From NCBI GenBank assembly GCA_963725865.1, contig CAVSAC010000014.1, positions 1 through 64,000 of the forward strand: a DNA stretch of 64,000 nt. The letters are read 5' to 3'. The notes under the pieces are model-generated. The model saw only the letters and a program-made list of their open reading frames with translations, had not been told where the DNA came from and searched no databases. This DNA comes from Candidatus Eiseniibacteriota bacterium. Its GTDB lineage: Bacteria; Eisenbacteria; RBG-16-71-46. The position numbers and the translations under genes were made by a program. Positions 8,581-55,566 of the stretch are shown in pieces. How positions within the stretch are numbered: position 1 is the first letter of the stretch; every line of letters starts with the position of its first letter.

Positions 8581-9831
8581 ATGAAACGCGTATCCACGAC
8601 CAATAGCTCGCCCGCCGCGCAGCCTGGAGAGTCGGCGCGCCGTACCACCAGCGCTTCACGGTGGAGTACGACTATCCCGTGCATTTCACCCGCGATCTGT
8701 TCTCCCGCGACAACCCGGTGTTCCTGTCGGCGCTGACCCGCAGGGAACCGGACAAGCGCCATCGCTTCGTCGCCTTCATCGACGCGGATGTGGCGGCGAG
8801 CTGGCCCGCGCTGGCGACGGATATCCGAGCGCTACGCCGAGCACCATGGCGAACGGCTGAGTCTGCTCGCCCCGCCGGAGATCATCGTGGGCGGCGAGCA
8901 GGTCAAGCACGACCCGGAGCTGGTCGTGCGCCTGCAGCGCCGGCTCCTCGATCTGGGCGTCGATCGGCACTCGTACGTGGTGGGCGTGGGCGGCGGCGCG
9001 TTCCTCGATATGGTGGGCTTCGTAGCGGCCACTACGCACCGCGGCGTGCGCCACGTGCGCGTGCCGACCACGGTGCTGGCTCAGAACGACTCGGGCGTGG
9101 GGGTGAAGAACGGAGTCAACACCTTTGGAGTCAAGAACTTCGTCGGCGCGTTCGCCCCGCCGTTTCGCAGTGCTCAATGACGCAGCCTTCCTGCGCACCT
9201 TGCATCCGCGCGACCGCATCGCCGGAATCGCCGAGGCGGTGAAAGTCGCGCTGATCCGCGACAAGGCCTTCTTCGAGTGGCTCGAGATTGCCAGGTGGGA
9301 GCACTGCATGCGGGCGCCCCTGAGGCGATGGCGCGCATGATCCGGCGCTGCGCCGAGCTGCACATGCGCCAGATCGCTCACGGCGGGGATCCGTTCGAAA
9401 CCGGCAGCGCGCGCCCGCTGGACTATGGCCACTGGTCCGCCCACAAGCTGGAGGCCTTGACCAGCCATGAGCTGCGCCACGGCGAGGCTGTCGCCATCGG
9501 CATCGCGCTGGACAGCCGCTACGCGGTGCAGATCGGCATGCTCGCGGAGGGGCTGGATGAGCGCATCTTCTGGATGCTCAAGCGGCTGGGCTTCTATCTC
9601 TGGCATCCGGCCATCGAGCGGCGCGACGCAGACGGTCGCTGGCTGCTGCTGGATGGGCTGCGCGAGTTCCGCGAGCATCTCGGCGGCGAGCTGACCATCA
9701 CGCTGCTGCGCGATATCGGCGTCGGCGAGGAAGTGCACTGGATGGACGAAGAAGAGATAGTCCAGGCTATCGCGTGGCTGCGCAACCAGGATGCCGAGCA
9801 ACGATGCTCGATGGCGGGTGCGGCCATTTAA
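8581..9831 (+). CDS. eboD: EboD-type 3-dehydroquinate synthase-like sugar-phosphate cyclase, copy 1 (frameshifts)
   Basis: [93 protein letters not shown]. Confidence 0.88.
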
Positions 9832-11009
9832 CCTATTGCAGCAACATCCATCCTGGGGAGACCTGGGCCGAGGTGCGGCAAAATCTCGAGTTGCATCTGC
9901 CGCCGATCCGAGCGCAACTGGCGCCGGGCGAACCCTTCGGCATTGGCCTGCGTCTGTCGGCCCAAGCCGCGCAGGCACTTGTGCGCCCTGCCGCGTTGGC
10001 CGATTTCAAAGATTTTCTCTTGCGTGAGCGCTTCTACGTGTTCACATTGAACGGTTTCCCCCATGGCACATTTCACCGTAAGCGAGTCAAGGAAGAGGTG
10101 TATCTTCCCGACTGGGGCAACATCAGGCGTATGCAATACACGGACCTGCTCGCGGACCTGCTGGCAGAGCTACTGCCGGACGAGTGCGGTCTGATCGGCA
10201 GCATCAGCACCGTGCCCGGTGCATTGAAGTCGAATGCGAGCACGCCCGAATCAGTGCAGCGCATCGTTGACCTGATGGTGAGGCATGCAGCCCACCTCGT
10301 GCAGTTGAGAGCGCGCACGGGGAAGCGCATCACACTCGCAATCGAACCAGAGCCCTGCTGCATGCTCGAAACAGTGGGGGAGAGCGTCGCGTTCTTTCGC
10401 GATCATCTGTTCTCCGGCGCCGCGGCGAAGCGACTTTCACAACTCACAGGGCTCAGCCAGCGCAACGCGCAGGAAGCTTTGCACGAACACCTCGGGCTGT
10501 GCCTCAACCTGTGCCACGCTGCGGTGGAGTTCGAAGATCCAGAAGCGTGCGTCAGGCAGCTCGCCGACGCGAACATAGGCGTCTACAAGCTGCACGTCAC
10601 CGCGGGGCTGAGGCTGCCGAAGCTATCCTTAGAGGCGCTTGCGGGCGTGAGGCAGTTCGACGACCCGGTCTACCTACATCAGGTCGTGGAGTTGGGTCCG
10701 GCTGGAATCCGGCGCTACGTCGACCTGCCCGAAGCCCTTAGCAGCCGTAATATGCGAGTGGGCCGAATGGACGCGAGTGGCGCGTACATTGCCATGTTCC
10801 TGTCGTCATCGACGACATGGGCGCGTTCTCATCGACACAGGCGTTCATCCGCGAAATACTGCGCTTGCATCGCACCCGACCTGTCTCCGCGCATCTCGAG
10901 GTAGAGACCTACACCTGGGCCGTATTGCCGCCGCACCTGCGCACCGGAGACATCGATCTGGCCGATCCCGCGGGAGCTGGCCTGGGTGCGCAACGAACTG
11001 GCCGCGTGA
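9804..11009 (+). CDS. eboE: Metabolite traffic protein EboE (xylose isomerase-like TIM barrel), copy 1
   Basis: [62 protein letters not shown]. Confidence 0.9.
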
Positions 11010-11060
11010 CGCTGCCGTCGCGCGCAAGCTCCGGCGCATCTCCAACCGGCCCAACGCGGC
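11006..11060 (+). pseudogene. 5' remnant of an eboC prenyltransferase
   Basis: aagctccggcgcatctccaaccggccc (KLRRISNRP) matches the eboC start aagctcgggcgcatctccaacctgccc (KLGRISNLP) near 30193; similarity then stops. Confidence 0.65.
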
Positions 11061-27684: not shown

Positions 27685-28915
27685 ATGAAACCGACCACAA
27701 CTGCCACAGCTGGAGCCAACATCGAACCCGGCGAGTTCGGCGCGGTGTACCACCAGCGCTTCGCGGTGGAGTACGACTATCCGGTCCACTTCACGCAGGA
27801 CCTGTTCGCGCGCGACAATCCGGTGTTCGTCTCCGCGCTTGCGCGCAAGGAACCCAACAAGCGCCATCGCTTCGTCGTCTTCATCGATGCCGACGTGGCG
27901 GCGAGCTGGCCCGCCCTGGCGCACGACATCGCTGCCTACGCCGAGCATCACGCCGACGCGCCTGCAGCTGCTCGCGCTCCGCCGAGATCATCGTCGGCGG
28001 CGAGCAGGTCAAGCACGACCCCGAGCTGGTGACCCGCCTGCAGCACCGCCTGCTCGAGCTCGGCGTCGACCGCCACTGCCTACGTCGTCGCCGTCGGCGG
28101 CGGCGCGTTCCTCGACATGGTCGGCTTCGTCGCGGCGACCACGCATCGCGGCGTGCGCCACGTGCGCGTGCCGACCACGGTGCTGGCGCAGAACGATTCG
28201 GGCGTCGGCGTGAAGAACGGCGTCAACGCGTTCGGCGTCAAGAACTTCGTCGGCACGTTCGCGCCGCCGTTCGCGGTGCTCAACGACGCGAACTTCCTGC
28301 GCACGCTGCACCCGCGCGATCGCATCGCCGGCATGGCCGAGGCGGTCAAGGTCGCGCTGATCCGCGACGCGCGTGTTCTTCGAGTGGCTCGAGTCGCAGG
28401 TCGAGGCGCTGCGCGCCTGCGCGCCGCGAGGCGATGGCGCGCATGATCCGGCGCTGCGCCGAGCTGCACATGCGCCAGATCGCGCACGGCGGCGATCCGT
28501 TCGAGACCGGCAGCGCGCGGCCGCTCGACTACGGTCACTGGTCGGCGCACAAGCTCGAAGCGCTGACCGCTCACGAGCTGCGCCACGGCGAGGCGGTGGC
28601 GATCGGCCTCGCGCTCGACAGCCGCTACTCGGTGCAGATCGGCATGCTCGCCGCCGGGCGAGGAAGAGCGCATCTTCCGCGCTGCTCAAGCGCCTCGGCT
28701 TCTACCTGTGGCATCCCGGCGCTGGAGCGGCGCGGCGCGACGGGCGCTGGCTGGTCCTCGACGGGCTTGCGCGAGTTCCGCGAGCATCTCGGCGGCGAGC
28801 TGACCATCACGCTGCTGCGCGAGATCGGCCGGGGCGAAGAAGTGCACGTCATGGACGAGGACGAGATCCTGCGGGCCATCGCGCTGGCTGCGTCAGCCGC
28901 GAGGCCGCGCAATGA
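27685..28915 (+). CDS. eboD: EboD-type sugar-phosphate cyclase, copy 2 (frameshifts)
   Basis: Same motifs as 8581-9831, with long near-identical nucleotide stretches. Confidence 0.88.
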
Positions 28916-30155
28916 ATCTTCGCAGCGGCGGCGAGCTTCGCTCGGCGCTTGCCACCTCACCTATTGCAGCAACATCCACCCGGGCGAGACCTGGGCCGAG
29001 GTGCGTGCGCAACCTCGGGCGCTACGTGCCGGCGGTGCGCGGCACGGCTGGCGCTCGACCGGCCGTTCGGAATCGGCCTGCGCTTGTCGGCGCGAGGCGG
29101 CGCAGGCGCTCGCGCAACCCGAAGCGATGCGCGAGCTCAAGGACTTTCTGGCGCGCGAGCAGCTCTACGTCTTCACGCTCAACGGCTTTCCCTACGGCAC
29201 GTTCCACGGCACGCGCGTCAAGGAAGACGTCTACCTGCCCGACTGGCGCGACGAGCAAGCGCCTGCAGTACACCGACCAGCTCGCCGACCTGCTGGCCGA
29301 GCTGCTGCCGGATCGAGAGCGGCTCGATCGGCAGCGTCAGCACCGTGCCGGGCGCGTTCAAGCCGAACGCGCGCACGCCCGAGGCCGTCGCAGCGCATGG
29401 TCGACACTGATGGTGCGCCACGCCGCCCACCTGGTGCAGTTGCGGGCGCGCACCGGCAAGCACATCACGCTCGGCGCTCGAGCCCGAGCCGTGCTGCTTC
29501 CTCGAGACGGTCGAGGAGAGCGTGGCGTTCTTCCGCGATCACCTGTTCGCCGACGCCGGCGGTCGCAGCGACTGTGCGAGCTCACCGGGCTCGACGCAGC
29601 GCAGCAGCGCAGCAGGCGCTGCGCGATCACCTGGGGCTGTGCCTCGATCTGTGCCATGCGGCGGTCGAGTTCGAGGATCCCGCAGGGCTGTCGTCGCGCA
29701 GCTCGCAGCAGGCGGGCATCGGCGTGTACAAGCTGCAGATCAGCGCAGGGCTGCGGCTGCCCGAGCTGTCGGCGGCTGCGCTCGCCGGCGTGCGCCAGTT
29801 CGACGACCCGGTGTATCTGCATCAGGTGGTCGAATCGGGGCCCGGCGGGCTGGTCCGCTACGTCGACCTGCCCGAGGCGCTGCGCGCGCCGGCAAGGGCG
29901 CGCGCTGGACGGAGGGAGTGGCGCGTGCACTGCCACGTGCCGATCTTCCTCGACGACCTGGGTGCGTTCTCGTCGACCCAGGCGTTCATCCGCGAGATGC
30001 TGCAGGCTGCATCGCGCCGAGCCCATCTCGACGCATCTCGAGGTCGAGACCTACACCTGGAACGTGCTGCCGCCGCACGCTGCGCACCGGACGACATGGA
30101 TCAGCGCCATCGCGCGCGAGCTGGCCTGGGTGCGCGAAGAGCTGGACGGCGCTGA
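28912..30155 (+). CDS. eboE: EboE, copy 2 (many frameshifts)
   Basis: [63 protein letters not shown]. Confidence 0.88.
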
Positions 30156-30159
30156 GACG

Positions 30160-31053
30160 GTGCAGTTGACCGCGGCGGTGTCGGTCGCCGTCAAGCTCGG
30201 GCGCATCTCCAACCTGCCCACGGTCTGGACCAACACGCTGGTCGGCGTGACGCTGGCCGGGCGGCTCGCTGACTCGACCCGCGCGTGCCGCTGCTGCTCG
30301 TGGCCTTGTCGCTCTTCTACGTGGGCGGCATGTACCTGAACGATGCCTTCGACCGCGAGTTCGACGCGCGCTCGCGTCCCGACCGCCCGATCCCCGCGGG
30401 TCAGGTCAGCGCGTGCGACGGTATTCGCTGCCGGCTTCGGCATGCTCGGCGCCGGGCTGGTCCTGCTGGCGATCGCTGGGTTCGGCTTCCCTGGACGGCA
30501 CCGGCTGGCGGCGCCGTGCTGTCCGGCGCCGCGCTAGGCGCGGCGATCGTGCTCGTACAACGCGTACCACAAGAACAACCCGCTGAGCCCGGTGCTGATG
30601 GGCACTGTGCCGGGTGCTGGTCTACGTCACCGCCGCGACGGCGATCGTCGCTGATCGCCCGACGCGAACCTGCTGCTCGCTGCGCTCGTGCTGCTGAGCT
30701 ATCTGATCGGGCTGACCTACACCGCCAAGCGCGAGCACCTCAACGAGCTGGGCAGCCTGTGGCCGCTGGCCGCGCTTGCCGTACCGGTCGGCTTCGGCGT
30801 CTCTCTGGCGCTGGACGTGCCGCTCGTGTGGCCCTTCCTGCTGCTGTTCGCCGGCTGGATCCTGTACGCGCTGTGGCTGCTGCGGCGCCGCGCGCGGGGC
30901 GATGTGCCGCGCGCCGTGGTCAGCCTCATCGCCGGCATCTCGCTGCTCGACGCGGTGATCCTCGCCGGAGCAGCCGCATGGCCGCTAGGTGTGACGGCAG
31001 TGGCCGCTTTCGCGCTGACCCTGGCGATGCAGCGCTGGGTCGCGGGGACCTGA
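30160..31053 (+). CDS. eboC: EboC-type UbiA-family prenyltransferase (frameshifts)
   Basis: KLGRISNLPTVWTN, YVGGMYLNDAFDREFDARSRPDRPIPAG, YNAYHK, LIAGISLLDA; multiple TM helices. Confidence 0.88.
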
Positions 31054-42652: not shown

Positions 42653-42789
42653 CACCATGGATCCAAGTCGGGCAGACAGTTTGCCGGGTCGACGCAGCGC
42701 CGTATGCGACCGTATCCATCGAACCAGGTTCCTGTCCTCGGCGGCATTCGCCCGTGCTGAACCGGATATCTTCCTAGGAGAACCAACCA

Positions 42790-43136
42790 TGATGCCAATC
42801 CGCAACTCCGCATTCGTCCTGGGGCTGTCGGCGGCAAGCCTGCTCGCGTTTCCGTCCGTCGCGTCCGCCGTCGATGCCGGCGCCGCGCAATCGCTCGCCC
42901 GCCAGAACAAGTGCTTCAACTGCCATGCCGTCGACAAGAAGAAGGAAGCCCCGGCGTGGAAGGAGGTCGCGGCGAAGTACAAGGGCAAGCCCGATGCGGA
43001 GGCGAAGCTCGTCACGCATCTCACGACCGGACCCAAGGTGAAATTCGACGACGGTCACCAGGAGGATCACCCGATCCTCAAGACCAAGAACCAGGACGAC
43101 ATCAAGAATCTCGTTGCATGGATCTTGTCGCTCTAG
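42790..43136 (+). CDS. mtoD: MtoD-like monoheme cytochrome c (predicted bis-His)
   Basis: AVDAGAAQSLARQNKCFNCHAVDK...KYKGKPDAEAKL...KFDDGHQEDH...KNLVAWILSL; no Met in the mature chain; closely resembles Sideroxydans MtoD. Confidence 0.85.
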
Positions 43137-45238: not shown

Positions 45239-45880
45239 GTGAACCGGGGCTCGCGATCCTGCCGCATCGTTCCGATCGGAGTGCTGGCGCTGATCGCCGG
45301 GATCCTTATGTTTCCCCCCGAGGCCGCGGCGCTCGACGTGATCGCGGCGCAGACGCTCGCGCGCCAGAGCCGGTGCCTCGAATGTCATACGGTCTACCAG
45401 AAGAAGATCGGGCCGGCGTGGAAGGACGTTGCGAGCAAGTACCACGGCGAGCCCGACGCCGAACAGCGGCTCTACAAGCACATCACGACCGGCCGCAAGG
45501 CGAAGTTCGACGACGGTCACCAGGAAGATCACCCGATCGTCAAGACGAGCGATGCGAGCCGGATCAGGAATCTCGTGGACTGGATACTGGCGCTCCCGGT
45601 CGCCGCTCCGGTCGACGTCGAGGCGGCGGAGACGCTCGCCGGCCAGAGCGGCTGCCTCAAATGCCACGGGGTCGGCGTGAAGAGGGTGGGCCCGGCGTGG
45701 AAGGACGTCGCGATCAAGTACTTGGGTAGCCTCGGGGCAGAGGACAAGCTTTACAAGCACGTCACGACCGGGCGCAAGGCCAAATTCGACGATGGCCACG
45801 AAGAAAATCATCCGATCGTCAAGACCCGCGACCCCGATCGGATCAACAACCTCGTGAACTGGATACTGTCGCTCAGGTAG
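45239..45880 (+). CDS. Tandem two-domain MtoD-like diheme cytochrome c
   Basis: CLECH...KFDDGHQEDHP...NLVDWILAL followed by CLKCH...KFDDGHEENHP...NLVNWILSL in one open frame. Confidence 0.88.
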   Translation: MNRGSRSCRIVPIGVLALIAGILMFPPEAAALDVIAAQTLARQSRCLECHTVYQKKIGPAWKDVASKYHGEPDAEQRLYKHITTGRKAKFDDGHQEDHPIVKTSDASRIRNLVDWILALPVAAPVDVEAAETLAGQSGCLKCHGVGVKRVGPAWKDVAIKYLGSLGAEDKLYKHVTTGRKAKFDDGHEENHPIVKTRDPDRINNLVNWILSLR

Positions 45881-46266: not shown

Positions 46267-46333
46267 AGCAGGGCGGACACGCAGGGCAACTACCATGGGT
46301 GCGGCATAAGCAGCAAAACAAAGGAGAGTGGAC

Positions 46334-47368
46334 ATGCGATTGAATTCGGCTAAGGCAGGCTGGTGGCTCGCCCTCCTGACCGCCTCGATGTTCGCCGGCC
46401 ACGCGCTGGCTCAGACCAAGTCCGCCAGCGCTGGCCCGGTCGCGCCGGTGTGCGCGAACTGCCACGAGGCGCAGTGGAACGCGATCGACCTCTCGGCGCA
46501 CGGCGCGAAGAACGACGCCAACGGCAGCATGTGCCAGAACTGTCACGGCGACGCCACGGAGCACCTCAAGGATCCGATGAAGGCGAAGCCGCCCAACCCG
46601 TTCGGCAAGGGCCACACGGCCAACGAGCGGACGACGGTCTGCCTCACCTGCCACTCGGGCAACCGCAATCTCGCGTTCTGGAGCTCGGGCAAGCACCAGC
46701 TGAACGAAGTGACGTGCGCCAACTGCCACAGCATCCACGGGCAAAAGCTGCTCCCGAGCTACAACGGGCTCAATCCGCCGGACAAGTCGCCGACGATCAA
46801 CAAGTTCACGACGACGTTCCTGCCCAACCAGGCGGAGATCTGCTGGCAGTGCCACCAGCCGATCCGCGCGGCGAACTTCAAGCCGTCGCATCACCCGATC
46901 ATCGAAGGCAAGGTCAAGTGCTCCGACTGCCACAACCCGCACGGCGCGATCACGCCGGCGATGCTGAAGCAGCCGACGATCAACGACCAGTGCTACTCGT
47001 GCCACGCCGACAAGCGCGGTCCGTACGTGTTCAACCACCCGCCGGTCGAGGAGAACTGCGTGACCTGCCACAACCCGCACGGCTCGGTCCACGCGAGGCT
47101 CCTGAACGAGTCCGCGCCGAACCTGTGCCAGGACTGCCACGACGGGTCGCGGCACCCCGGCACGGTCTACGGCGCCGCCGGCGCCTTCAACTGCCAGCCG
47201 GGCGACACGTCCGCGACGAGCGGGACGCTGAGCTGCCCGCCGAGCAGGACCGGACAGCCCAATCCGGGCGTGAACAACCGCCTCGTGACCCGCGCGTGCA
47301 ACAACTGCCACACCGCGATCCACGGCTCGAACGCGCCGGGTAACCGTGGCAAGTTCTTCACGCGATAA
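46334..47368 (+). CDS. mtoA: DmsE/MtrA/MtoA-family decaheme cytochrome c, copy 1
   Basis: Ten CxxCH (CANCH, CQNCH, CLTCH, CANCH, CWQCH, CSDCH, CYSCH, CVTCH, CQDCH, CNNCH); SHHPIIEGK, KRGP, IHGSN. Confidence 0.93.
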   Translation: MRLNSAKAGWWLALLTASMFAGHALAQTKSASAGPVAPVCANCHEAQWNAIDLSAHGAKNDANGSMCQNCHGDATEHLKDPMKAKPPNPFGKGHTANERTTVCLTCHSGNRNLAFWSSGKHQLNEVTCANCHSIHGQKLLPSYNGLNPPDKSPTINKFTTTFLPNQAEICWQCHQPIRAANFKPSHHPIIEGKVKCSDCHNPHGAITPAMLKQPTINDQCYSCHADKRGPYVFNHPPVEENCVTCHNPHGSVHARLLNESAPNLCQDCHDGSRHPGTVYGAAGAFNCQPGDTSATSGTLSCPPSRTGQPNPGVNNRLVTRACNNCHTAIHGSNAPGNRGKFFTR

Positions 47369-47380
47369 GGGGAGACCAAA

Positions 47381-50212
47381 ATGAGCAAGAAGCTGCTTTC
47401 CGCCCTCATCGCCAGCCTGTTCGCCGCCGCGCCCGCGTTCGGCCAGAGCGCTGACGACCCGATGCGCGTCCAGGGCACCGCCACCCTCGGCGGCATCCAC
47501 AACAACACGAGCGCGACCGACAACGCGCAGCTCGAGCTGTACCAGGACCTCGGCAACGGCGTGATGTCGAACGTCGGCGTCCAGGGGCGCAACAGCACGA
47601 CGTGGTTCCAGGGCTACGGCGAGAACTTCGGCCGCGGCGACCAGTACATGTTCCTGCGCGGCGGCATGTACGACGTGTTCAAGTCGGGGGTGTACCTCAA
47701 CGACATCCCGCGCACGTTCTCGTCGTCCGCCTACACGCCTTTCGTCGGCAGCGGGACCAACCTGCTGACGGCGACATTCCCGCTGGCCGCGCTGCCGACG
47801 AACCCGCCGACGGGCAGCAGCTGGAACTTCTTCCGGCTGGGCTACGACCGCCGCGACGTGGGCGGCTACGCGGAGTGGCAGAAGAACAGCCCGTGGTACT
47901 TCCGGGCCGACGCCAACCAGGTCAAGTTCAGCGGCACCCGGCCCGGCTCCGGCGCCAACGGCACGAGCCCGGGCAACGGCTACACCGACCTCGCGATCCC
48001 GCAGGACTTTACGACGAACAACTGGGGCGTCGAGGGCGGCTACCAGTCGGGCAAGATGACGTTCTCGGTGCGCTGGGACTACAGCCAGTTCGAGAACGGG
48101 AACGAGACCCTGAAGTGGACCAACCCGTTCTTCGTCGGCCCGAGCGTCGGCGGGGTCGCGACGCCCAGCAACCTGCTCGACACGACGTACCTCGCGCCGG
48201 GCAACACGTTCAACAAGTTCACGCTCTCCGGCAACTACCGCGACCTGCCGTGGCAGTCGGTGGTTTCGGCGCGCTACACGTGGGCGAAGACGACGAGCGA
48301 CACGCCGCTCGCGCCTGACGGCGCTCAACACCAACGGCGTCTACGCCAACACGCTGCCGGACGAGACCAACTTCAACGGCGAGAACATCAACCAGTCGTT
48401 CCAGCTGGCGTGGACCGCGATGCCGGCGGCGAATTGGAACACGCGCGCCTACTACTACTGGACGAAGCTCGACAACAAGTCGGACCTGGTCGAGTTCGGC
48501 AACGCGCCGGCGACGCCGCTCGCGTCGGGCCTGGGCTGCGGCAACCTCGTCGTGGCCGGCATACCGACGCAGACGGTCGGCAACTGCGACAACGAGCTCT
48601 ACAACTACACGAAGAACAACGCCGGCTTCGACGCGTGGTGGAAGTTCGCGCCCGGCAACCGGCTGGGCTTCGGCTACGACTACCTCAACATCGACCAGAC
48701 GCGCGTCGACTACGACAAGTCGCACACGAACAAGCTGTGGGCCGAGTACAAGAACACGATGTTCGACACGGTGTCCGGCCGGCTCAAGTACCAGTACCTG
48801 AAGCGCGACTCGACGCTCAACTTCAGCAACGATCCGCTTCCCAACGGCGGCGCGAACAACCCGAACTACCTGCTGCCGTACACGTCCGCGTTCGACCTGC
48901 AGAGCAACACCACGAACCTGGTGAAGCTGACCCTCGACTGGACCCCGATGATGAACGTCGGCCTGTCGTTCGAGGGCAACTGGGCCAAGGTCGATTTCGA
49001 CGACGTGACCTACGGCCGCACCGAGTCCGACCGGCAGGGCTACTTCCTGAGCGGCTACTGGAACGCGTCCGGCAGCGTGAAGCTGAACGCCTTCGGCAGC
49101 TGGGAGCAGGCGAAGTATCCGTCGAACCATCGCTACATCGGCACGGTTGGCGGCGCGGCACGGCCCGAACAACCCGCCGTCCGGCTACTGCACGACCACC
49201 AACCCGAACTGCTACGACCCGTTCGCCGCGCCGGTCGCCAACAGCTCCTACAACTGGAGCTCGCAGACCAAGGACAAGACGTGGATGTTCGGGGTCGGCG
49301 CCGACTGGCAGGCGATGGACGCGCTCAAGCTGACGGGTTCGTACCTGTACATCAACGAACGAGGGCACCGCGACGTTCGGCGTGCAGAACAACATCGCGA
49401 TCTCGCCGACGCCGCTTCCGATCGACAACTTCGACAACAGCAAGCAGCAGTACATCAACCTGAAGGGCATCTGGAGCCTCAACCGGAACTGGTCGTTCAC
49501 CGGCGGCTACTCGTACCTGAAGTACACCCACAACGACATCGCCACCGACGGATACCAGTACGCGCTGCCGATCGTCACGAACAGCGGCGCCGGCGGCGTC
49601 GTCCCGAACAACCCGAAGAGCACGTCGCTCAGCTACCTGAACGGCTACGACGCGTACACGGACGGTCACTCGAACATCTTCTACCTGCACGGTGACCTAC
49701 AAGTTCGACGCGCCGCCGCTGCCGGCTGCCGCCGATGAAGGTCGCGGCAGCGCCGCCGGCGCCGGTCGTGCGGCCGGCCGCCGCCGCCCCCGCCGCCGCC
49801 CCCGCCGCCGCCGCCGCCGGCCCGCAGGTGCAGAAGATCACGCTCGACTCGAAGGTGCTGTTCGACTTCGACAAGGCGGATCTGAAGCCCGAAGGGAAGG
49901 CGGCGATCGACAGCCAGGTCGTCGGCAAGCTCGGCGCAGATCCAGAAGCTCGAAGTCGTCCTGGTGACGGGTCACACCGACCGCCTCGGCTCGGACGCCT
50001 ACAACCAGAAGCTGTCGCAGCGTCGCGCGCGACGCGGTGCGCGACTATCTCGTCAGCAAGGGCGTGGACAAGGACGAAGATCGAGACGATCGGGATGGGC
50101 GAGAAGCAGCCGGTCGTGCAGTGCGATCAGAAGAACCATGAAGGCGCTGATCGAGTGCCTGCAGCCCAACCGCCGCGTGGACGTGCAGGTCAAGGGCGAG
50201 TCGACGAAGTAG
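47381..50212 (+). CDS. mtoB: MtrB/MtoB/PioB-family outer-membrane beta-barrel fused to a C-terminal OmpA domain, copy 1 (frameshifts)
   Basis: Follows the decaheme gene; signal peptide; aromatic-rich strands; last strand VTYKF continues into a Pro/Ala linker, then VLFDFDKA, TGHTDRLGSDAYNQKLS, QPNRRV. Confidence 0.85.
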
Positions 50213-50235
50213 TCACCTCGCAGGCATGCCTCGAG

Positions 50236-50263
50236 AGCCCCGCCTCGCGCGGGGCTTTTTCTT
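50236..50263 (+). terminator. Intrinsic terminator
   Basis: agccccgc-ctcgc-gcggggct followed by ttttctt. Confidence 0.8.
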
Positions 50264-50375
50264 GGGTGGCCGATGCCGGACGGCGACGTTCGCGACGTCG
50301 CGATGCCGATGCGCCGATTCGGCGCGGGAACGCACGGCCTCGATCGACGCGGGAAGGCACGGCCGTGATTTGCCC

Positions 50376-50390
50376 GCGACATTCGGTCGC
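50376..50390. promoter_or_regulatory. RegA/PrrA-like box
   Basis: GCGAC attcg GTCGC. Confidence 0.55.
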
Positions 50391-50482
50391 GTTCCCGATG
50401 CGGAGGGTGTGTAACAGAAAGGATTCCACGGTGTGCGGAATCCACAACACGCCATCGCCGAATCGCGATTTGCCCGGATTGA

Positions 50483-50496
50483 TTGACGTCCGTCAA
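50483..50496. promoter_or_regulatory. FNR/CRP-family box
   Basis: TTGAC gtcc GTCAA upstream of mtoA copy 2. Confidence 0.7.
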
Positions 50497-50708
50497 ATTG
50501 CCGATCGGCCTCCGGGAGCGCAATGGGAACCATAGGGCGAGTGCAATGCCGCGCGCGCATCCCGCGGTCGACGCGCAGCAGGAACTGCTTCGGGGCAGTG
50601 CGGCGCCCGTCACCAGTGCAGGGCCTCTGCGTCGGCAGCAAAACGAAGTTGCCGTTCCGGAATCCGGTCTTCGAATCCTGCATCAACTCCCAACGGAAGA
50701 GGTGGTCC

Positions 50709-51678
50709 ATGCTATCCAAGAACCTCAAGGTCGCAGGCTGGCTGATGGCCGCGCTCGCAGCGTTCCTCGCGCTGCCTGCCGTTGCGCAGGGGCAGAAGGC
50801 CGCGGCTGGCCGTGCCGGTCTGCGTCAACTGCCACGAGAGGCAAACTGCGTCGATCCTGCTGACCGCGCACGGGGCGCAGAACGACGCGAACGGTAGCGC
50901 GTGCCAGAGCCTGCCACGGCGACGCGACGCTCGCACCTGAAGGACCCGTCCAAGGTCAAGCCCGACGAGCGCGCTCGACGTCCAAGACCGCCGACCGCGG
51001 CCGAAAAGTCGGCGGTGTGCCTCAACTGCCACGGCGGCCAGCGGGCAGCTCGAGCACTGGTCCGATCGCCAAGCACCGCAAGGTCGACGTGACGTGCGTC
51101 GAACTGCCACTCGATCCACGGCACGCAGTCGGCGAGCAACAACAAGGAGATCAGGGGTGCGCAGTTCGCGGCCGCGCCGTACACGACGACCGTGCGCCAG
51201 CTCGTCTACAAGCGGTGCATCGAGTGCCACCGCGACGTCCGCGGCGAGATACTCAAGCCCTCGCACCACCCGATCATCGAAGGCAAGGTCTTCTGCCAGG
51301 ACTGCCACGACCCGCACGGTTCGCTGCAGAAGGCGAGCCTGACGAACGAGTCCGTCAGCGACCTGTGCCTCACCTGCCACACCGACAAGCGCGGTCCGTG
51401 GATCCACGAGCATCCCCCGGTCGAGGAGAACTGCGCGATCTGCCACACGCCGCACGGCTCGTCGCACAAGGGCGCTGCTTGCGCAGAAGCCGCCGGCGCT
51501 GTGCGCCGACTGCCACGCGAACGGCCACACGCACGGCATCTACGACGGACGCGGGACGCTGCCCGGGGTGCTGCCGTCGAACATCCGCTTCGAAAGCAGC
51601 GGCTGCGTCAATTGCCATCGGCAGATCCACGGCAGCAACGCGCCGTCATCCGCCTACGGCGAATTCTTCCTCCGCTGA
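50709..51678 (+). CDS. mtoA: DmsE/MtrA/MtoA-family decaheme cytochrome c, copy 2 (frameshifts)
   Basis: Ten heme motifs reconstructable (CVNCH, CQxCH, CLNCH, CxNCH, CIECH, CQDCH, CLTCH, CAICH, CADCH, CVNCH); SHHPIIEGK, IHGSN. Confidence 0.88.
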
Positions 51679-51693
51679 GACCAGGGGACGATC

Positions 51694-54542
51694 ATGAGAG
51701 TCAAACTTATTGCCTTAGTCGTGGCCGGCCTGTTCGCGCAGAGCGCGCAAGCCGACGATAACTTCCTGTGGGGCGGATCCATCGACGTCGGCGGACGCGG
51801 CACGAACGTCGACGGTGCCAACCGCAACGGCGCGTACGGCAACACCGCCCCGCTGTCGACCACCAACCCGCTGACGCCGTTCACCGGCCCGGTCGACGAC
51901 GCGAAGGCGAAGGAGTACCAGGACATCGACAGCGCCGCCGATCGGCGTGTTCGACATCCGTGGCGGCAGCAAGCGCGTACTACCTGCGTGCGTTCGGCGA
52001 GGAGTTGGGACGCGACGACCAGTTCATCAACATCGTCGGCGGCGGCTACGAAGCCTGGAAGGCCTCGGTCTACAGCAACAACATCCCGCACAACTACTCG
52101 TTCAACGCTCTGTCGCCCCTGAGCAACGCGAACGGCGGCCTGCTGCAGGTCGGCCCCGGCCTCCCCTATCCGCCGGCCCAGAACCCGGCACTGTGGAACA
52201 CGTTCCAGTACGGCACCCAGCGCAACACAGTGGGCGGCAACCTCGAGCTCTCGCTCAAGTCGCCGTGGTTCATCCGCGCCGACTACAACGAGGTGCAGAC
52301 GGGCGGCGTCAAGCCGGGGTCCGCTCAGCTCGGGACGGGCTCGGGCAATGGCCTGATCGAGCTCGGCGTGCCGGTCGACTACAAGACGAAGAATGCGCTC
52401 GTCGAGGGCGGCTACAACAGCAAGCAGTACGGGTTCAAGCTCTCCTACATCGACTCGAAGTTCACCAACGGCAACGATTCGATGCAGTGGACGAACTTCT
52501 ACATGCGCAGCGGGCTGGACGCTTCGCTGCTGCCGCCGGACAACGAACTCAAGAAGTGGAACATCAGCGGGTACATCAAGCAGCTGCCGTGGGACTCGGC
52601 GATCATCGCGCGCTTCACGCAGAGCAAGCAGACGAGCAACGTGGGCCTCACGGACCCGCTCTGGACGTCGAGCCTCAAGCCGACGGGCAATACCCCCACC
52701 GGCCAGGCGATCCCGCCCGGCGTGGGTTACCTGCTGACGCAGCCGTTTGACTCCGCGACGAACCAGAACCTGACGAACTTCAACGGCGAGATCAAGACGA
52801 ACACCGCCAACGTCGCGTGGAACGCGAGCCCGATGGCGCAGCTCGACACGCGGGTCTACTACGAGTACTACGACAAGCAGAACAACTCGACGATCCGTCT
52901 CGTACCGGCAGGGCAGCCAGGGCACAAGCTGCGCGACCCCGCCCGTGAACAGCGCGACGTGCTTCCAGATCCCGTCTCTGGTCGAGGAGGGCGGAGAGGC
53001 ATTCTCGTACACGAAGAACAGTGGCCGGGTTCGACGCGAAGTGGTCGTTCGACCGCGCCAACAAGCTGCTGGGCGGGTACGACTGGGAGAGCATCAAGCG
53101 CAACGACTACGAACTAAGCGGACTTGAGGTGCCCAAGTCCGACGGCAACCGCCTCTGGATCGAGTACCGCAACACCGCGTGGGAGAACCTGACCGGCCGG
53201 CTGAAGTACGACTTCCTGCAGCAGCGCTCCGACCTGATCAACACCAATCCGCCGACCAGCGTCTCGGCCTACTACACGGCCTACAACGTCAACAACTTCG
53301 ACCGCAACACGGTCAAGCTGAACGTCGACTGGACGCCGATGCCGATGCTGCTGATCGGCGTGGGCGCGACCTGGCGCGACACCGATTACAAGGACAACTT
53401 CTACGGGCGCACGAAGGACAAGAGCCAGCAGTACGACGCGACCGCGTCGTGGGGTGACGACAAGCTGCGGATCACCGCCATCGGCAACTGGGGCAAGATC
53501 GAGTACAACCAGGGGTACCGGGTGGTCGGCAGCCTCACCGCCACTCCTCCGACCTTCACCGGGGCTCTGCCGAGCGACCCGCAGAACAACGTCAATTACA
53601 ACTGGAGCACGGTCGAACACGCAGGACGGCTGGATGGGCGCCGCGCTGGTCGACTGGGCGGCGTCCGACAAGCTGATGCTGACCGCGTCGTACACCTACC
53701 AGAAGACCGGGGGCGGACTCGACTTCACGTCGGGCAATACGCAGGCCGGCGGCGGCTACCTCGGCGGCCCGCTCGTCAACTACAGCACCGACAACACGAA
53801 GCTGCAGCGGTTCCAGATCAAGGGGACCTACGACTACAACAAGAAGTGGTCGTTCAATGGCGGGTACGCGTACGAGAAGTACGACTACACCGACGGCCAG
53901 ATGGCGGGCTACGGCGAGCTACTACCCGTACTTCCAGAACCTGAACACGGCGGCCGTCGGATCGAACTACTCGTGGTTCAGCGGCGCGTTCGCCAACCCG
54001 AGCTACACGACCAACCTGTTCTGGCTGACGGTGACCTACAAGTTCGACCCGCCACCGCAGGTGTACGTCGCGCCGAGGCTCGCCGAAGCGCCGAAGCCGG
54101 TGGTTGCGCCGCCCGCCGCCGCCGCCCCCGCCCGCGCCGCCGCCTCCGCCGGCCCCGCAGGTGCAGAAGATCACGCTCGACTCGAAGGTGCTGTTCGACT
54201 TCGACAAGGCGGTCCTGACGCCCGAAGGGAAGGCGGCGATCGACAGCCAGGTCGTGACCAAGCTCGCGCAGGTCCAGAAGCTCGAGGTCGTCATCGTGAC
54301 GGGGCACACCGATCGCCTGGGCACGGACGCCTACAACCAGAAGCTGTCGGACGAACGGGCGGCGGCGGTGGGCGAGCTATCTCGCCAGCAAGGGTGTGGA
54401 CAAGGCGAAGATCCAGACCATCGGGATGGGCGAGAAGCAGCCGGTCGTGCAGTGCAATCAGAAGAACCAGAAGGAACTGATCGCGTGCCTGCAGCCCAAT
54501 CGCCGGGTGGACGTGGAGGTCAGGGGCGAAGTCAGGAAGTAA
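51694..54542 (+). CDS. mtoB: MtrB/MtoB-family beta-barrel fused to a C-terminal OmpA domain, copy 2 (frameshifts)
   Basis: KEYQD, PVDY, LPPDNE, barrel end LTVTYKF continuing DPPPQVY into a poly-Pro linker, then VLFDFDKA, TGHTDRLGTDAYNQKLS, QPNRRV. Confidence 0.85.
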
Positions 54543-54565
54543 TCGCCTCGCAGCCGCAGCACGAG

Positions 54566-54594
54566 AGCCCCGCCTCGCGCGGGGCTTTCTCTTT
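54566..54594 (+). terminator. Intrinsic terminator (same hairpin as 50236)
   Basis: agccccgc-ctcgc-gcggggct followed by ttctcttt. Confidence 0.78.
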
Positions 54595-54630: not shown

Positions 54631-55089
54631 TCAGCGGAACGTGGCGGCGCCGGCCAGCGCCACCGCGCGAAGTTGTTCGGCCCGGGCGACGAAGGCGTCG
54701 ACCAGCGTGTTCGCGATCCGCTCGAACACGGGGCCGGCCAGCCGGCCGAGGACCGGGCTTGCGAAGTCGTAGCGCAGCGCGAACTCGATCTTGCACGCGT
54801 CGGCGGCCAACGGCGTCAGGTGCCAATCCCCTTCGAACCGGCGGAAGGGACCCCGCTCGAGTGTGATGGCCATGAATTCCGGCCGGCGCTTCGGGTTGCG
54901 CGTGGTGAAATCGAGACGGATGTTCCGGTAACTGACCCGTATGTCGGCGACGACGACGTGGTCATCGCGCTCGAGGACCCGGGTTCCGGCGCACCACGGC
55001 AGGAATTCCGGATAGCGCTCGGCGGCCTCGATCAGGTCGAACATCGTTTCGGCGGGAAAGCCGACCAGCGCTGACCTGCGGACCTCCAT
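54631..55089 (-). CDS. ratA: RatA/PasT (Coq10-like START domain) protein
   Basis: RSALV, YPEFLPWC, FTTRN, GPFRRFEGDW, VFERIANTLVDAFVARA. Confidence 0.88.
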   Translation of the reverse strand: MEVRRSALVGFPAETMFDLIEAAERYPEFLPWCAGTRVLERDDHVVVADIRVSYRNIRLDFTTRNPKRRPEFMAITLERGPFRRFEGDWHLTPLAADACKIEFALRYDFASPVLGRLAGPVFERIANTLVDAFVARAEQLRAVALAGAATFR

Positions 55090-55153
55090 TGCCCCGCTCC
55101 CACCGCCCTGTTGAAGGATCACGCCCGGACCGACATGTCCCAATCGGGATACC

Positions 55154-55167
55154 TTGACGCAAATCAA
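55154..55167. promoter_or_regulatory. FNR box
   Basis: TTGAC gcaa ATCAA (9/10), about 105 bp upstream of the cytochrome c gene. Confidence 0.72.
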
Positions 55168-55272: not shown

Positions 55273-55566
55273 ATGATCAAGTCGTTGGCGGTAGGAGTTG
55301 TCGCCGCGGCCGTGCTGTCGGCCGGCGGCGTCGCAATGGCAGCGAGCGGCGAGGAGATCGCGAAGAGCAGCGGTTGCCTCAACTGCCACGCGGTCGACAC
55401 GAAGAAGTTGGGGCCGTCGTTCAAGGAGACGGCGGCGAAGTACAAGGGGAAGGCCGACGCCGAAGCGACCCTGACGGCCAAGCTGTCCGGCGCCAAGGGG
55501 CACCCCGAGGTGAAGGCCAAGGGCGCCGACCTCACGACGGTGCTGAAGTGGGTCCTGGCGATGTAG
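55273..55566 (+). CDS. Small c551-like monoheme cytochrome c
   Basis: RBS aaggag; signal; GCLNCHAVDTKKLGPSF; KGHP in place of the usual distal Met. Confidence 0.9.
   Translation: MIKSLAVGVVAAAVLSAGGVAMAASGEEIAKSSGCLNCHAVDTKKLGPSFKETAAKYKGKADAEATLTAKLSGAKGHPEVKAKGADLTTVLKWVLAM

Follow-up and report, generated by a model that had tools for sequence, protein, structure and literature searches.

The textbook way for electrons to cross the outer membrane is a conduit of the MtrAB, MtoAB or PioAB type. The characterised barrels of such conduits (MtrB, MtoB and PioB) stop at the last aromatic strand and, to our knowledge, are all free-standing. Attachment to the cell wall is a feature of other systems: the Neisseria class 4 protein RmpM holds porins in trans through its N-domain, and the Deinococcus protein SlpA is tethered to the wall via an SLH domain. 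Here, we analyse a 64,000-nt stretch of DNA (the window; contig CAVSAC010000014.1 of assembly GCA_963725865.1), and coordinates are window positions unless stated otherwise. Its forward strand carries, at 46.3-54.6 kb, two tandem units that each consist of a decahaem cytochrome gene (mtoA1, mtoA2) followed by a large barrel gene (mtoB1, mtoB2). We find that both barrel genes continue beyond the last strand into a hinge and an OmpA-type C-terminal domain, and that this fusion is carried intact by many relatives.

The window conduits share the basic layout of described systems (e.g., MtrCAB, 6R2Q), in which a decahaem MtoA gene (10 CxxCH) lies directly 5' of a PF11854 barrel gene. They differ from MtrCAB in that no gene for an MtrC-like outer cytochrome was seen adjacent to them. 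Twelve bases separate mtoA1 from mtoB1; over its 346 aa, the mtoA1 product is 91.6% identical to MtoA from a related locus (L018). The two barrels, termed type 1 and type 2, share about 30-37% protein identity. Whereas characterised members and a canonical clade of relatives stop at the last aromatic strand, the fused proteins add a hinge and an OmpA C-domain, together ~160 residues.

Both mtoB genes read through the end of the barrel. VTYKF, the final strand, occupies 49692-49706 in copy 1 and 54031-54045 in copy 2, and in neither copy is it followed by an in-frame stop, just as a preliminary description of this DNA had claimed. That description also placed after the strand a Pro-rich linker and an OmpA C-terminal domain lacking its own signal peptide, and the motif positions bear this out in both copies: QVQKITLDSK opens the module at 49825 and 54158, followed by GHTDRLG at 49970 and 54302 and by NRRVDV at 50168 and 54498. 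A separate signal peptide is absent from both OmpA modules; the sole start codons fall within the Pro/Ala hinge. The end coordinate previously given for copy 2, 54542, is likewise correct (Table 1). The 3' ends of the two copies, counted from VTYKF up to and including the terminator, are ~89% identical at the DNA level. Relative to the module of L018, the copy 2 module is 84-91% identical (84% and 93% in a separate comparison) and the copy 1 module, read through its frameshifts, 42-57%.

The barrel-hinge-OmpA fusion is genuine on both paralogues and is common in uncultured soil betaproteobacteria. It is genuine because relatives carry it intact, in 43 genes with a single open reading frame (ORF), and not because the window holds two copies. 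A layout that recurs in this way goes far beyond chance. When one genome per species was scanned with MtoA1, 80 loci were recovered, nearly all from uncultured betaproteobacterial, Burkholderiales or Casimicrobiaceae metagenome-assembled genomes. Of 37 ORFs tested downstream of mtoA, 26 encode PF11854 and PF00691 without interruption (776-1050 residues), several of these in short-read assemblies, and 11 encode the barrel alone. Six of the 80 loci were too short to be scored; the other 74 yielded 88 barrel 3' ends. A single open frame joins barrel and module at 43 of these; at 22 the module follows immediately, but across a frame break or a gap; 21 lack it; and the last two coincide with contig ends. 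Intact relatives score 133-231 bits against PF11854 (cut-off, 23 bits) and 67-84 bits against PF00691 (cut-off, 27.2 bits). Proteins with both MtrB_PioB and OmpA (PF00691) domains, for which the preliminary description had suggested a search, were also found in a collection of 5.8 billion proteins: 263 match the junction region, and both Pfam domains are present in 118 of the best 120 listed protein clusters. The ESM Atlas contains a 114-member cluster named for both domains.

The first part of the fused proteins belongs to the MtrB/PioB family, as seen from its profile match, the 26-strand MtrB-like fold of a relative and the adjoining decahaem cytochrome genes. The window frames are themselves broken, and the structure was modelled with AlphaFold on the 938-aa fused protein of L018, which is 87% identical to copy 1, with a 92-sequence alignment. 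The model has a mean predicted local distance difference test (pLDDT) score of 84.3 and a predicted template-modelling score (pTM) of 0.70. Residues 29-769 form a barrel of ~26 long strands and residues 812-938 an alpha/beta OmpA fold; the linker between them (776-812) has pLDDT <50. The top Foldseek match is MtrB (6r2q_B; E 3e-36, target template-modelling (TM) score 0.88). In canonical relatives, the PF11854 match reaches 635/635 at the C-terminus, in agreement with the earlier statement that known barrels end at the aromatic strand.

The second part is an OmpA C-terminal domain, given its profile and fold matches in relatives and its conserved Asp and Arg. Foldseek matches include the OmpA C-domains of Salmonella and Klebsiella (TM 0.79-0.88, 45-50% identity; 0.83-0.88 for 4rha). 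The module matches the periplasmic domain of E. coli OmpA with E ~2e-35, and the hinge and disulfide loop align too. Four residues are invariant in 92 fused proteins: D863 (GHTD), R878 (LSxxRA), C910 and C921. D863 and R878 align with TDR and ERRA of E. coli OmpA. The sequence of the module bears the hallmarks of a peptidoglycan binder, which supports the preliminary description on this point. We take the conserved Asp and Arg to be the pair that contacts diaminopimelate, roles that reportedly emerged from work on A. baumannii OmpA.

Enterobacterial OmpA (2MQE, 3NB3, 4ERH, 4RHA) has its barrel, hinge and domain in the same order. The alignment runs the full length of hinge and C-domain and takes in both the TDR-G-DAYN-LS-RA motif and the disulfide loop at the C-terminus. 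The barrels differ, with eight strands in OmpA and, by homology, a 26-strand cytochrome-holding MtrB/PioB barrel here. Accordingly, PF01389, the 8-strand OmpA membrane domain, is matched by none of the 26 fused relatives, whose N-terminal part is PF11854; the fused proteins are not OmpA proper (PF01389 barrel plus C-domain). The module also matches RmpM (1R1M, E 2.6e-19) and the OprF C-domain (E 7.9e-16). RmpM-type proteins are soluble periplasmic tethers with a signal peptide, a short N-domain, a hinge and an OmpA C-domain but no barrel, and fused MtoB shares only their hinge and OmpA C-domain. In fused MtoB, the putative tether is in cis, on the same polypeptide as the barrel. OprF-type ‘OmpA-OmpF porin (OOP)’ proteins share the C-domain match and an automatic name with the fused proteins, but have a barrel of another family and no cytochrome partner. 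The same difference separates the fused proteins from SlpA (7ZGX), which is among the fold matches.

Taken together, we think it quite probable that the window encodes two tandem MtoAB conduits whose barrels are anchored to the wall in cis by a module from the lineage's own RmpM-like protein, and whose frame breaks are errors. Periplasmic decahaem MtoA would presumably thread the 26-strand barrel. The barrel protein, running on without a stop, would place its C-terminal domain in the periplasm, because an even-stranded barrel of MtrB topology ends there. A Pro/Ala hinge of ~37-50 residues would let the OmpA-type domain reach peptidoglycan and bind it non-covalently through the conserved Asp and Arg, as in OmpA. 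By analogy, we infer that such binding would tether each conduit to the cell wall. The anchor might stabilise the envelope locally, around a very large barrel, restrict the movement of the conduit or immobilise it, and exclude it from vesicles, with possible consequences for electron transfer. OmpA attaches non-covalently to diaminopimelate, and more vesicles are produced when it is lost; Neisseria vesicles are depleted of RmpM, PilQ and MtrE, which are anchored to peptidoglycan (PMC6988826). More speculatively, and with rather low odds in our view, anchoring could itself be a working part of the conduits and not a passive addition: identical modules would fix, and perhaps pair, both conduits at immobile sites, with MtoA in register with small cytochromes c and no loss to vesicles, an arrangement that would be typical of uncultured soil and wetland Burkholderiales.

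A standalone RmpM-like protein is the likely donor of the fused hinge and C-domain, judging from sequence similarity. Such a protein, with a module 70-74% identical to the fused one, occurs in five of five relatives' genomes (L101, L102, L105, L106, and L107), where it is the nearest relative among the matches. Its layout, checked in L105 (L105:1222-1950), comprises a signal peptide, a ~60-residue Cys-containing N-domain, a Pro/Ala hinge and an OmpA C-domain. At the threshold used, the genomes of L028 and L051 have the standalone protein alone.

The phylogeny indicates that barrels have acquired, lost and exchanged the module. A FastTree phylogeny of 60 near-complete barrels (74 listed ORFs, less 14 truncated ones) resolves three well-supported clades: type 1, type 2 and canonical. 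All eight type 2 barrels are fused, counting L047_+443, which has an N run inside its OmpA part and the module downstream. In the type 1 clade, 33 of 35 barrels are fused, and the two exceptions, L028 and L051, are nested inside as losses that keep a hinge remnant. The canonical clade is unfused in 16 of 17 cases, L069 being fused; L086 is fused by tblastn but frameshifted. Module state changes five times on the tree with L047_+443 labelled unfused and four times, by inspection, once this label is corrected. At the sites of the two losses (L028:12450-13399 and L051:6460-7600), the first hinge residues (DAPPLP...) are kept and a stop follows 10-20 residues after the strand. No OmpA gene is found downstream of mtoB in either locus. 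A second module subtype (KMTTLSADELFAFDSAVL... GYTDRLGS...), ~52% identical to the common one, occurs in L021:6987-9338, L027 and L068:11063-13819. Each of the two subtypes is found on both barrel types, which argues for module swapping.

Modules of tandem paralogues evolve in concert, and their similarity points to gene conversion as the mechanism. In the 10 genomes with two complete modules, nucleotide identity between type 1 and type 2 modules is 1.00, 0.995, 0.987, 0.984, 0.979, 0.94, 0.868, 0.861, 0.629 and 0.58. It is thus 0.94-1.00 in six of 10 genomes, compared with a between-genome mean of 0.80, and the barrels themselves are only ~30% identical in protein. Recombination probably carries the module from one mtoB paralogue to another. 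Since gene conversion keeps the modules alike, the two copies in the window are not independent evidence for the fusion. The preliminary description had argued that the same layout in two diverged copies speaks against an artefact; the fusion proved real through the 43 intact genes of relatives, but the argument itself is weak.

The reading frames of the window copies are interrupted repeatedly. There are about 7-8 frame breaks per mtoB gene and 2-3 in mtoA2, while mtoA1 is unbroken. The preliminary description had correctly noted that frames are broken, but assigned the breaks to indels in CCG-rich linkers; they are more numerous and extend beyond the linkers. The clean fused protein of L018 maps collinearly onto copy 1 in four frame pieces at ~87% identity, except for the last piece, at 53% as a result of further shifts. 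Clean type 2 proteins map collinearly onto copy 2 over residues 1-932, in ~9 frame pieces. We modelled frame switches with a three-state phase model that tracks the GC-rich third codon position (GC3). Seven switches were placed in copy 1 (48304, 49145, 49356, 49698, 49929, 50020, and 50136) and seven in copy 2 (51941, 52895, 53020, 53611, 53912, 54078, and 54349). An ORF-length gauge of sequence quality was dropped in favour of the phase model, as it was confounded by its own GC3 threshold. Up to 120 kb on the contig, every 10 kb holds 7-28 modelled switches, about three times the density at 150-300 kb, where the figure is 4-12. We also compared the window with independent short-read contigs of relatives from four soil and wetland runs, without using the habitat labels of the runs as evidence. 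Among the 12 of 52 indels that are listed, these contigs have one base fewer at 49356, 49932, 50030, 50135/6, 51037-51101 and 53914/7. In copies 1 and 2, the one-base differences fall at or near modelled switch points, and all listed breaks are single-base events.

These data bear on several alternatives. The barrel and the OmpA protein could be separate genes, with the stop and the signal peptide of the OmpA ORF masked by sequencing errors. The frame is broken within both hinges, and L028 and L051 do stop shortly past the strand. Nevertheless, such masking would have to have removed both signals from both window copies and would leave aside the single-ORF fusions in relatives, which come from several assemblers, and L028 and L051 are themselves without any downstream OmpA gene. 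We therefore give this explanation almost no weight. Alternatively, both mtoB genes and mtoA2 could be true pseudogenes decaying by frameshift, such that the fusion is alive in relatives and dead here. The many switches in these three genes, next to an intact mtoA1, and source reads that could not be mapped would fit with this. Against it, the excess of switches covers the entire first ~120 kb, well beyond these genes; collinearity with relatives is full-length, with no large deletions and with ~87% identity in the in-frame pieces of copy 1; and all listed breaks are single-base, where relatives' contigs have one base fewer. Decay is thus very unlikely. The frame breaks are instead, with high probability, assembly errors in a low-quality stretch, because the switch excess spans the first ~120 kb and relatives' contigs are one base shorter at several of the breaks.

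A third alternative accepts the OmpA-type domain as real, but gives it mainly another task: pairing or clustering conduits, docking a periplasmic partner, or gating the barrel before MtoA inserts. The OmpA C-domain dimerises, which bears on clustering, and near-identical modules on very different barrels would suit a shared interaction surface. That L028 and L051 manage without the module also favours such a role. However, tandem repeats can convert one another without selection, the conserved neighbourhood shows no obvious partner, and the residues invariant in 92 sequences include the presumed diaminopimelate-binding Asp and Arg. We regard a non-anchoring role as unlikely, though less so than decay. 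Several points also weigh against anchored, intact conduits as we propose them. Peptidoglycan binding is predicted from homology and from two conserved residues of presumed role, and the position of the OmpA domain in the model is unreliable because the linker has such low pLDDT. Close relatives without the module (L028 and L051) show that it can be dispensed with in some backgrounds. The window's own frames are broken, and reads of the source sample were not mappable, the best public run containing ≤0.12 of sampled words. The contigs compared are those of relatives, mostly 90-95% alike, and switch points 48304, 49145, 49698, 51941, 52895, 53020, 53611, 54078 and 54349 have no counterpart among the 12 of 52 indels listed.

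The conduits probably belong to a Casimicrobiaceae-like betaproteobacterium and not to the genome under which the contig is filed, to judge from sequence matches and composition. GC content (guanine plus cytosine) is 61-70% in the first ~100-120 kb of the contig versus 70-77% beyond ~120 kb, and 70-74% on every contig of the genome. The region at 24-44 kb of the window matches four betaproteobacterial genomes with up to 2430 bits (72% over 4.6 kb), compared with 113 bits for the best match among the genome's own kin. A third MtrB_PioB gene of this genome (813617-815515 on the contig; locus L001) is intact and of canonical length, with a 726-aa open frame and a profile match to 635/635; it resembles the genes of the genome's own kin, unlike the window copies. 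The kin were uninformative on the fusion: they hold only canonical MtoB that ends at the aromatic strand and is unrelated to the window copies. Betaproteobacterial DNA misjoined to the contig is a likelier origin than an acquired island, because GC content and error density shift together at a contig end. The window copy is thus probably a noisy and misplaced example of the fusion.

Taken as a whole, the fused proteins represent a genuine and widespread variant of the MtoAB conduit with a putative OmpA/RmpM-type wall anchor in cis, annotated automatically but seemingly undescribed. The preliminary description knew of no account of this architecture. We found no description of an MtrB/PioB-OmpA fusion in the full-text literature searched, which does not extend to subscription journals and supplements; nevertheless, databases do annotate both domains automatically. 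Matching passages of related studies treat OmpA, if at all, in other contexts. In these passages, OmpA figures only as a signal peptide (PMC13390432) or in the reference list (PMC6831781), ‘OmpA-like’ is used only for another protein (bioRxiv 2025.06.06.657845), and the fusion is not mentioned (PMC11366258). Equally, the corresponding text of a phylogeny of Mtr proteins contains no ‘OmpA’, ‘peptidoglycan’ or ‘fusion’ (PMC8805035), and that of a further study no ‘OmpA’ or ‘peptidoglycan’ (PMC10734462). Automatic names of fused proteins include ‘OmpA family protein’, ‘MtrB/PioB family outer membrane beta-barrel protein’ and ‘OOP family OmpA-OmpF porin’. Many fused MtoB proteins are filed only under the first of these, and would therefore escape surveys of iron-cycling genes.

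A whole soil and wetland betaproteobacterial clade with a putative built-in anchor bears on how large barrels are stabilised and positioned in the outer membrane. Shewanella conduits have been reported in vesicles and membrane extensions, and the fusion bears on whether conduits can enter such structures. Natural controls exist on both sides: close relatives (L028 and L051) in which the module has been lost, and one canonical-clade barrel in which it has been gained.

Small class I cytochrome c genes lie beside the conduits (Table 1), and their products are candidate periplasmic electron shuttles. A clean relative (L054), in which the two units are arranged in the same order, has genes for lactate utilisation on the upstream side and, as in the window, an SRPBCC gene downstream. 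In the neighbourhood of L054, no MtrC-like or CymA-like gene was seen adjoining the conduits.

Table 1. Features of the two mtoA-mtoB units and their surroundings in the window.
Feature	Position	Strand	Remarks
Monohaem class I cytochrome c paralogue	42789-43127		
Dihaem class I cytochrome c gene	45239..45880	+	PF00034 Cytochrom_C, 52.9 bits in 2 stretches; two tandem CxxCH domains; just 5' of mtoA1
mtoA1, periplasmic decahaem cytochrome	46328..47368	+	Intact ORF, 346 aa, 10 CxxCH
mtoB1 barrel part, MtrB/PioB family ‘type 1’	47381..49706	+	Signal peptide to VTYKF; PF11854, 101.7 + 74 bits; frame broken several times
mtoB1 Pro/Ala-rich hinge	49707..49824	+	Frame break near 49720-49735
mtoB1 OmpA C-terminal module (peptidoglycan-binding type)	49825..50212	+	Stop TAG at 50210-50212; ~3 frame breaks
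Terminator-like GC hairpin and T-run 3' of mtoB1	50233..50260	+	Near-identical to hairpin 3' of mtoB2
mtoA2, second divergent decahaem cytochrome gene	50709..51678	+	Frame broken; collinear with MtoA2 of L054 in 2 pieces; 5' of mtoB2
mtoB2 barrel part, MtrB/PioB family ‘type 2’	51694..54045	+	Ends VTYKF; PF11854, 115.4 + 68.4 bits; frame broken; collinear with clean type 2 proteins
mtoB2 Pro/Ala-rich hinge	54046..54157	+	Frame break near 54113-54156
mtoB2 OmpA C-terminal module	54158..54542	+	Stop TAA at 54540-54542; one frame break near 54378-54394
Terminator-like hairpin 3' of mtoB2	54563..54589	+	11 pairs, 8 GC
RatA/SRPBCC gene	54631-55167	-	
Monohaem class I cytochrome c gene	55273..55566	+	3' of the units

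The three flanking class I cytochrome c genes, of which one is dihaem and the others are monohaem, share 71-79% DNA identity with each other over ~95-290 bases. A similar small cytochrome c gene lies directly 3' of the unfused mtoB in L028. Elsewhere in the window, ~2.4 kb are present twice, at 8623-11053 and 27727-30220, with 79% DNA identity.

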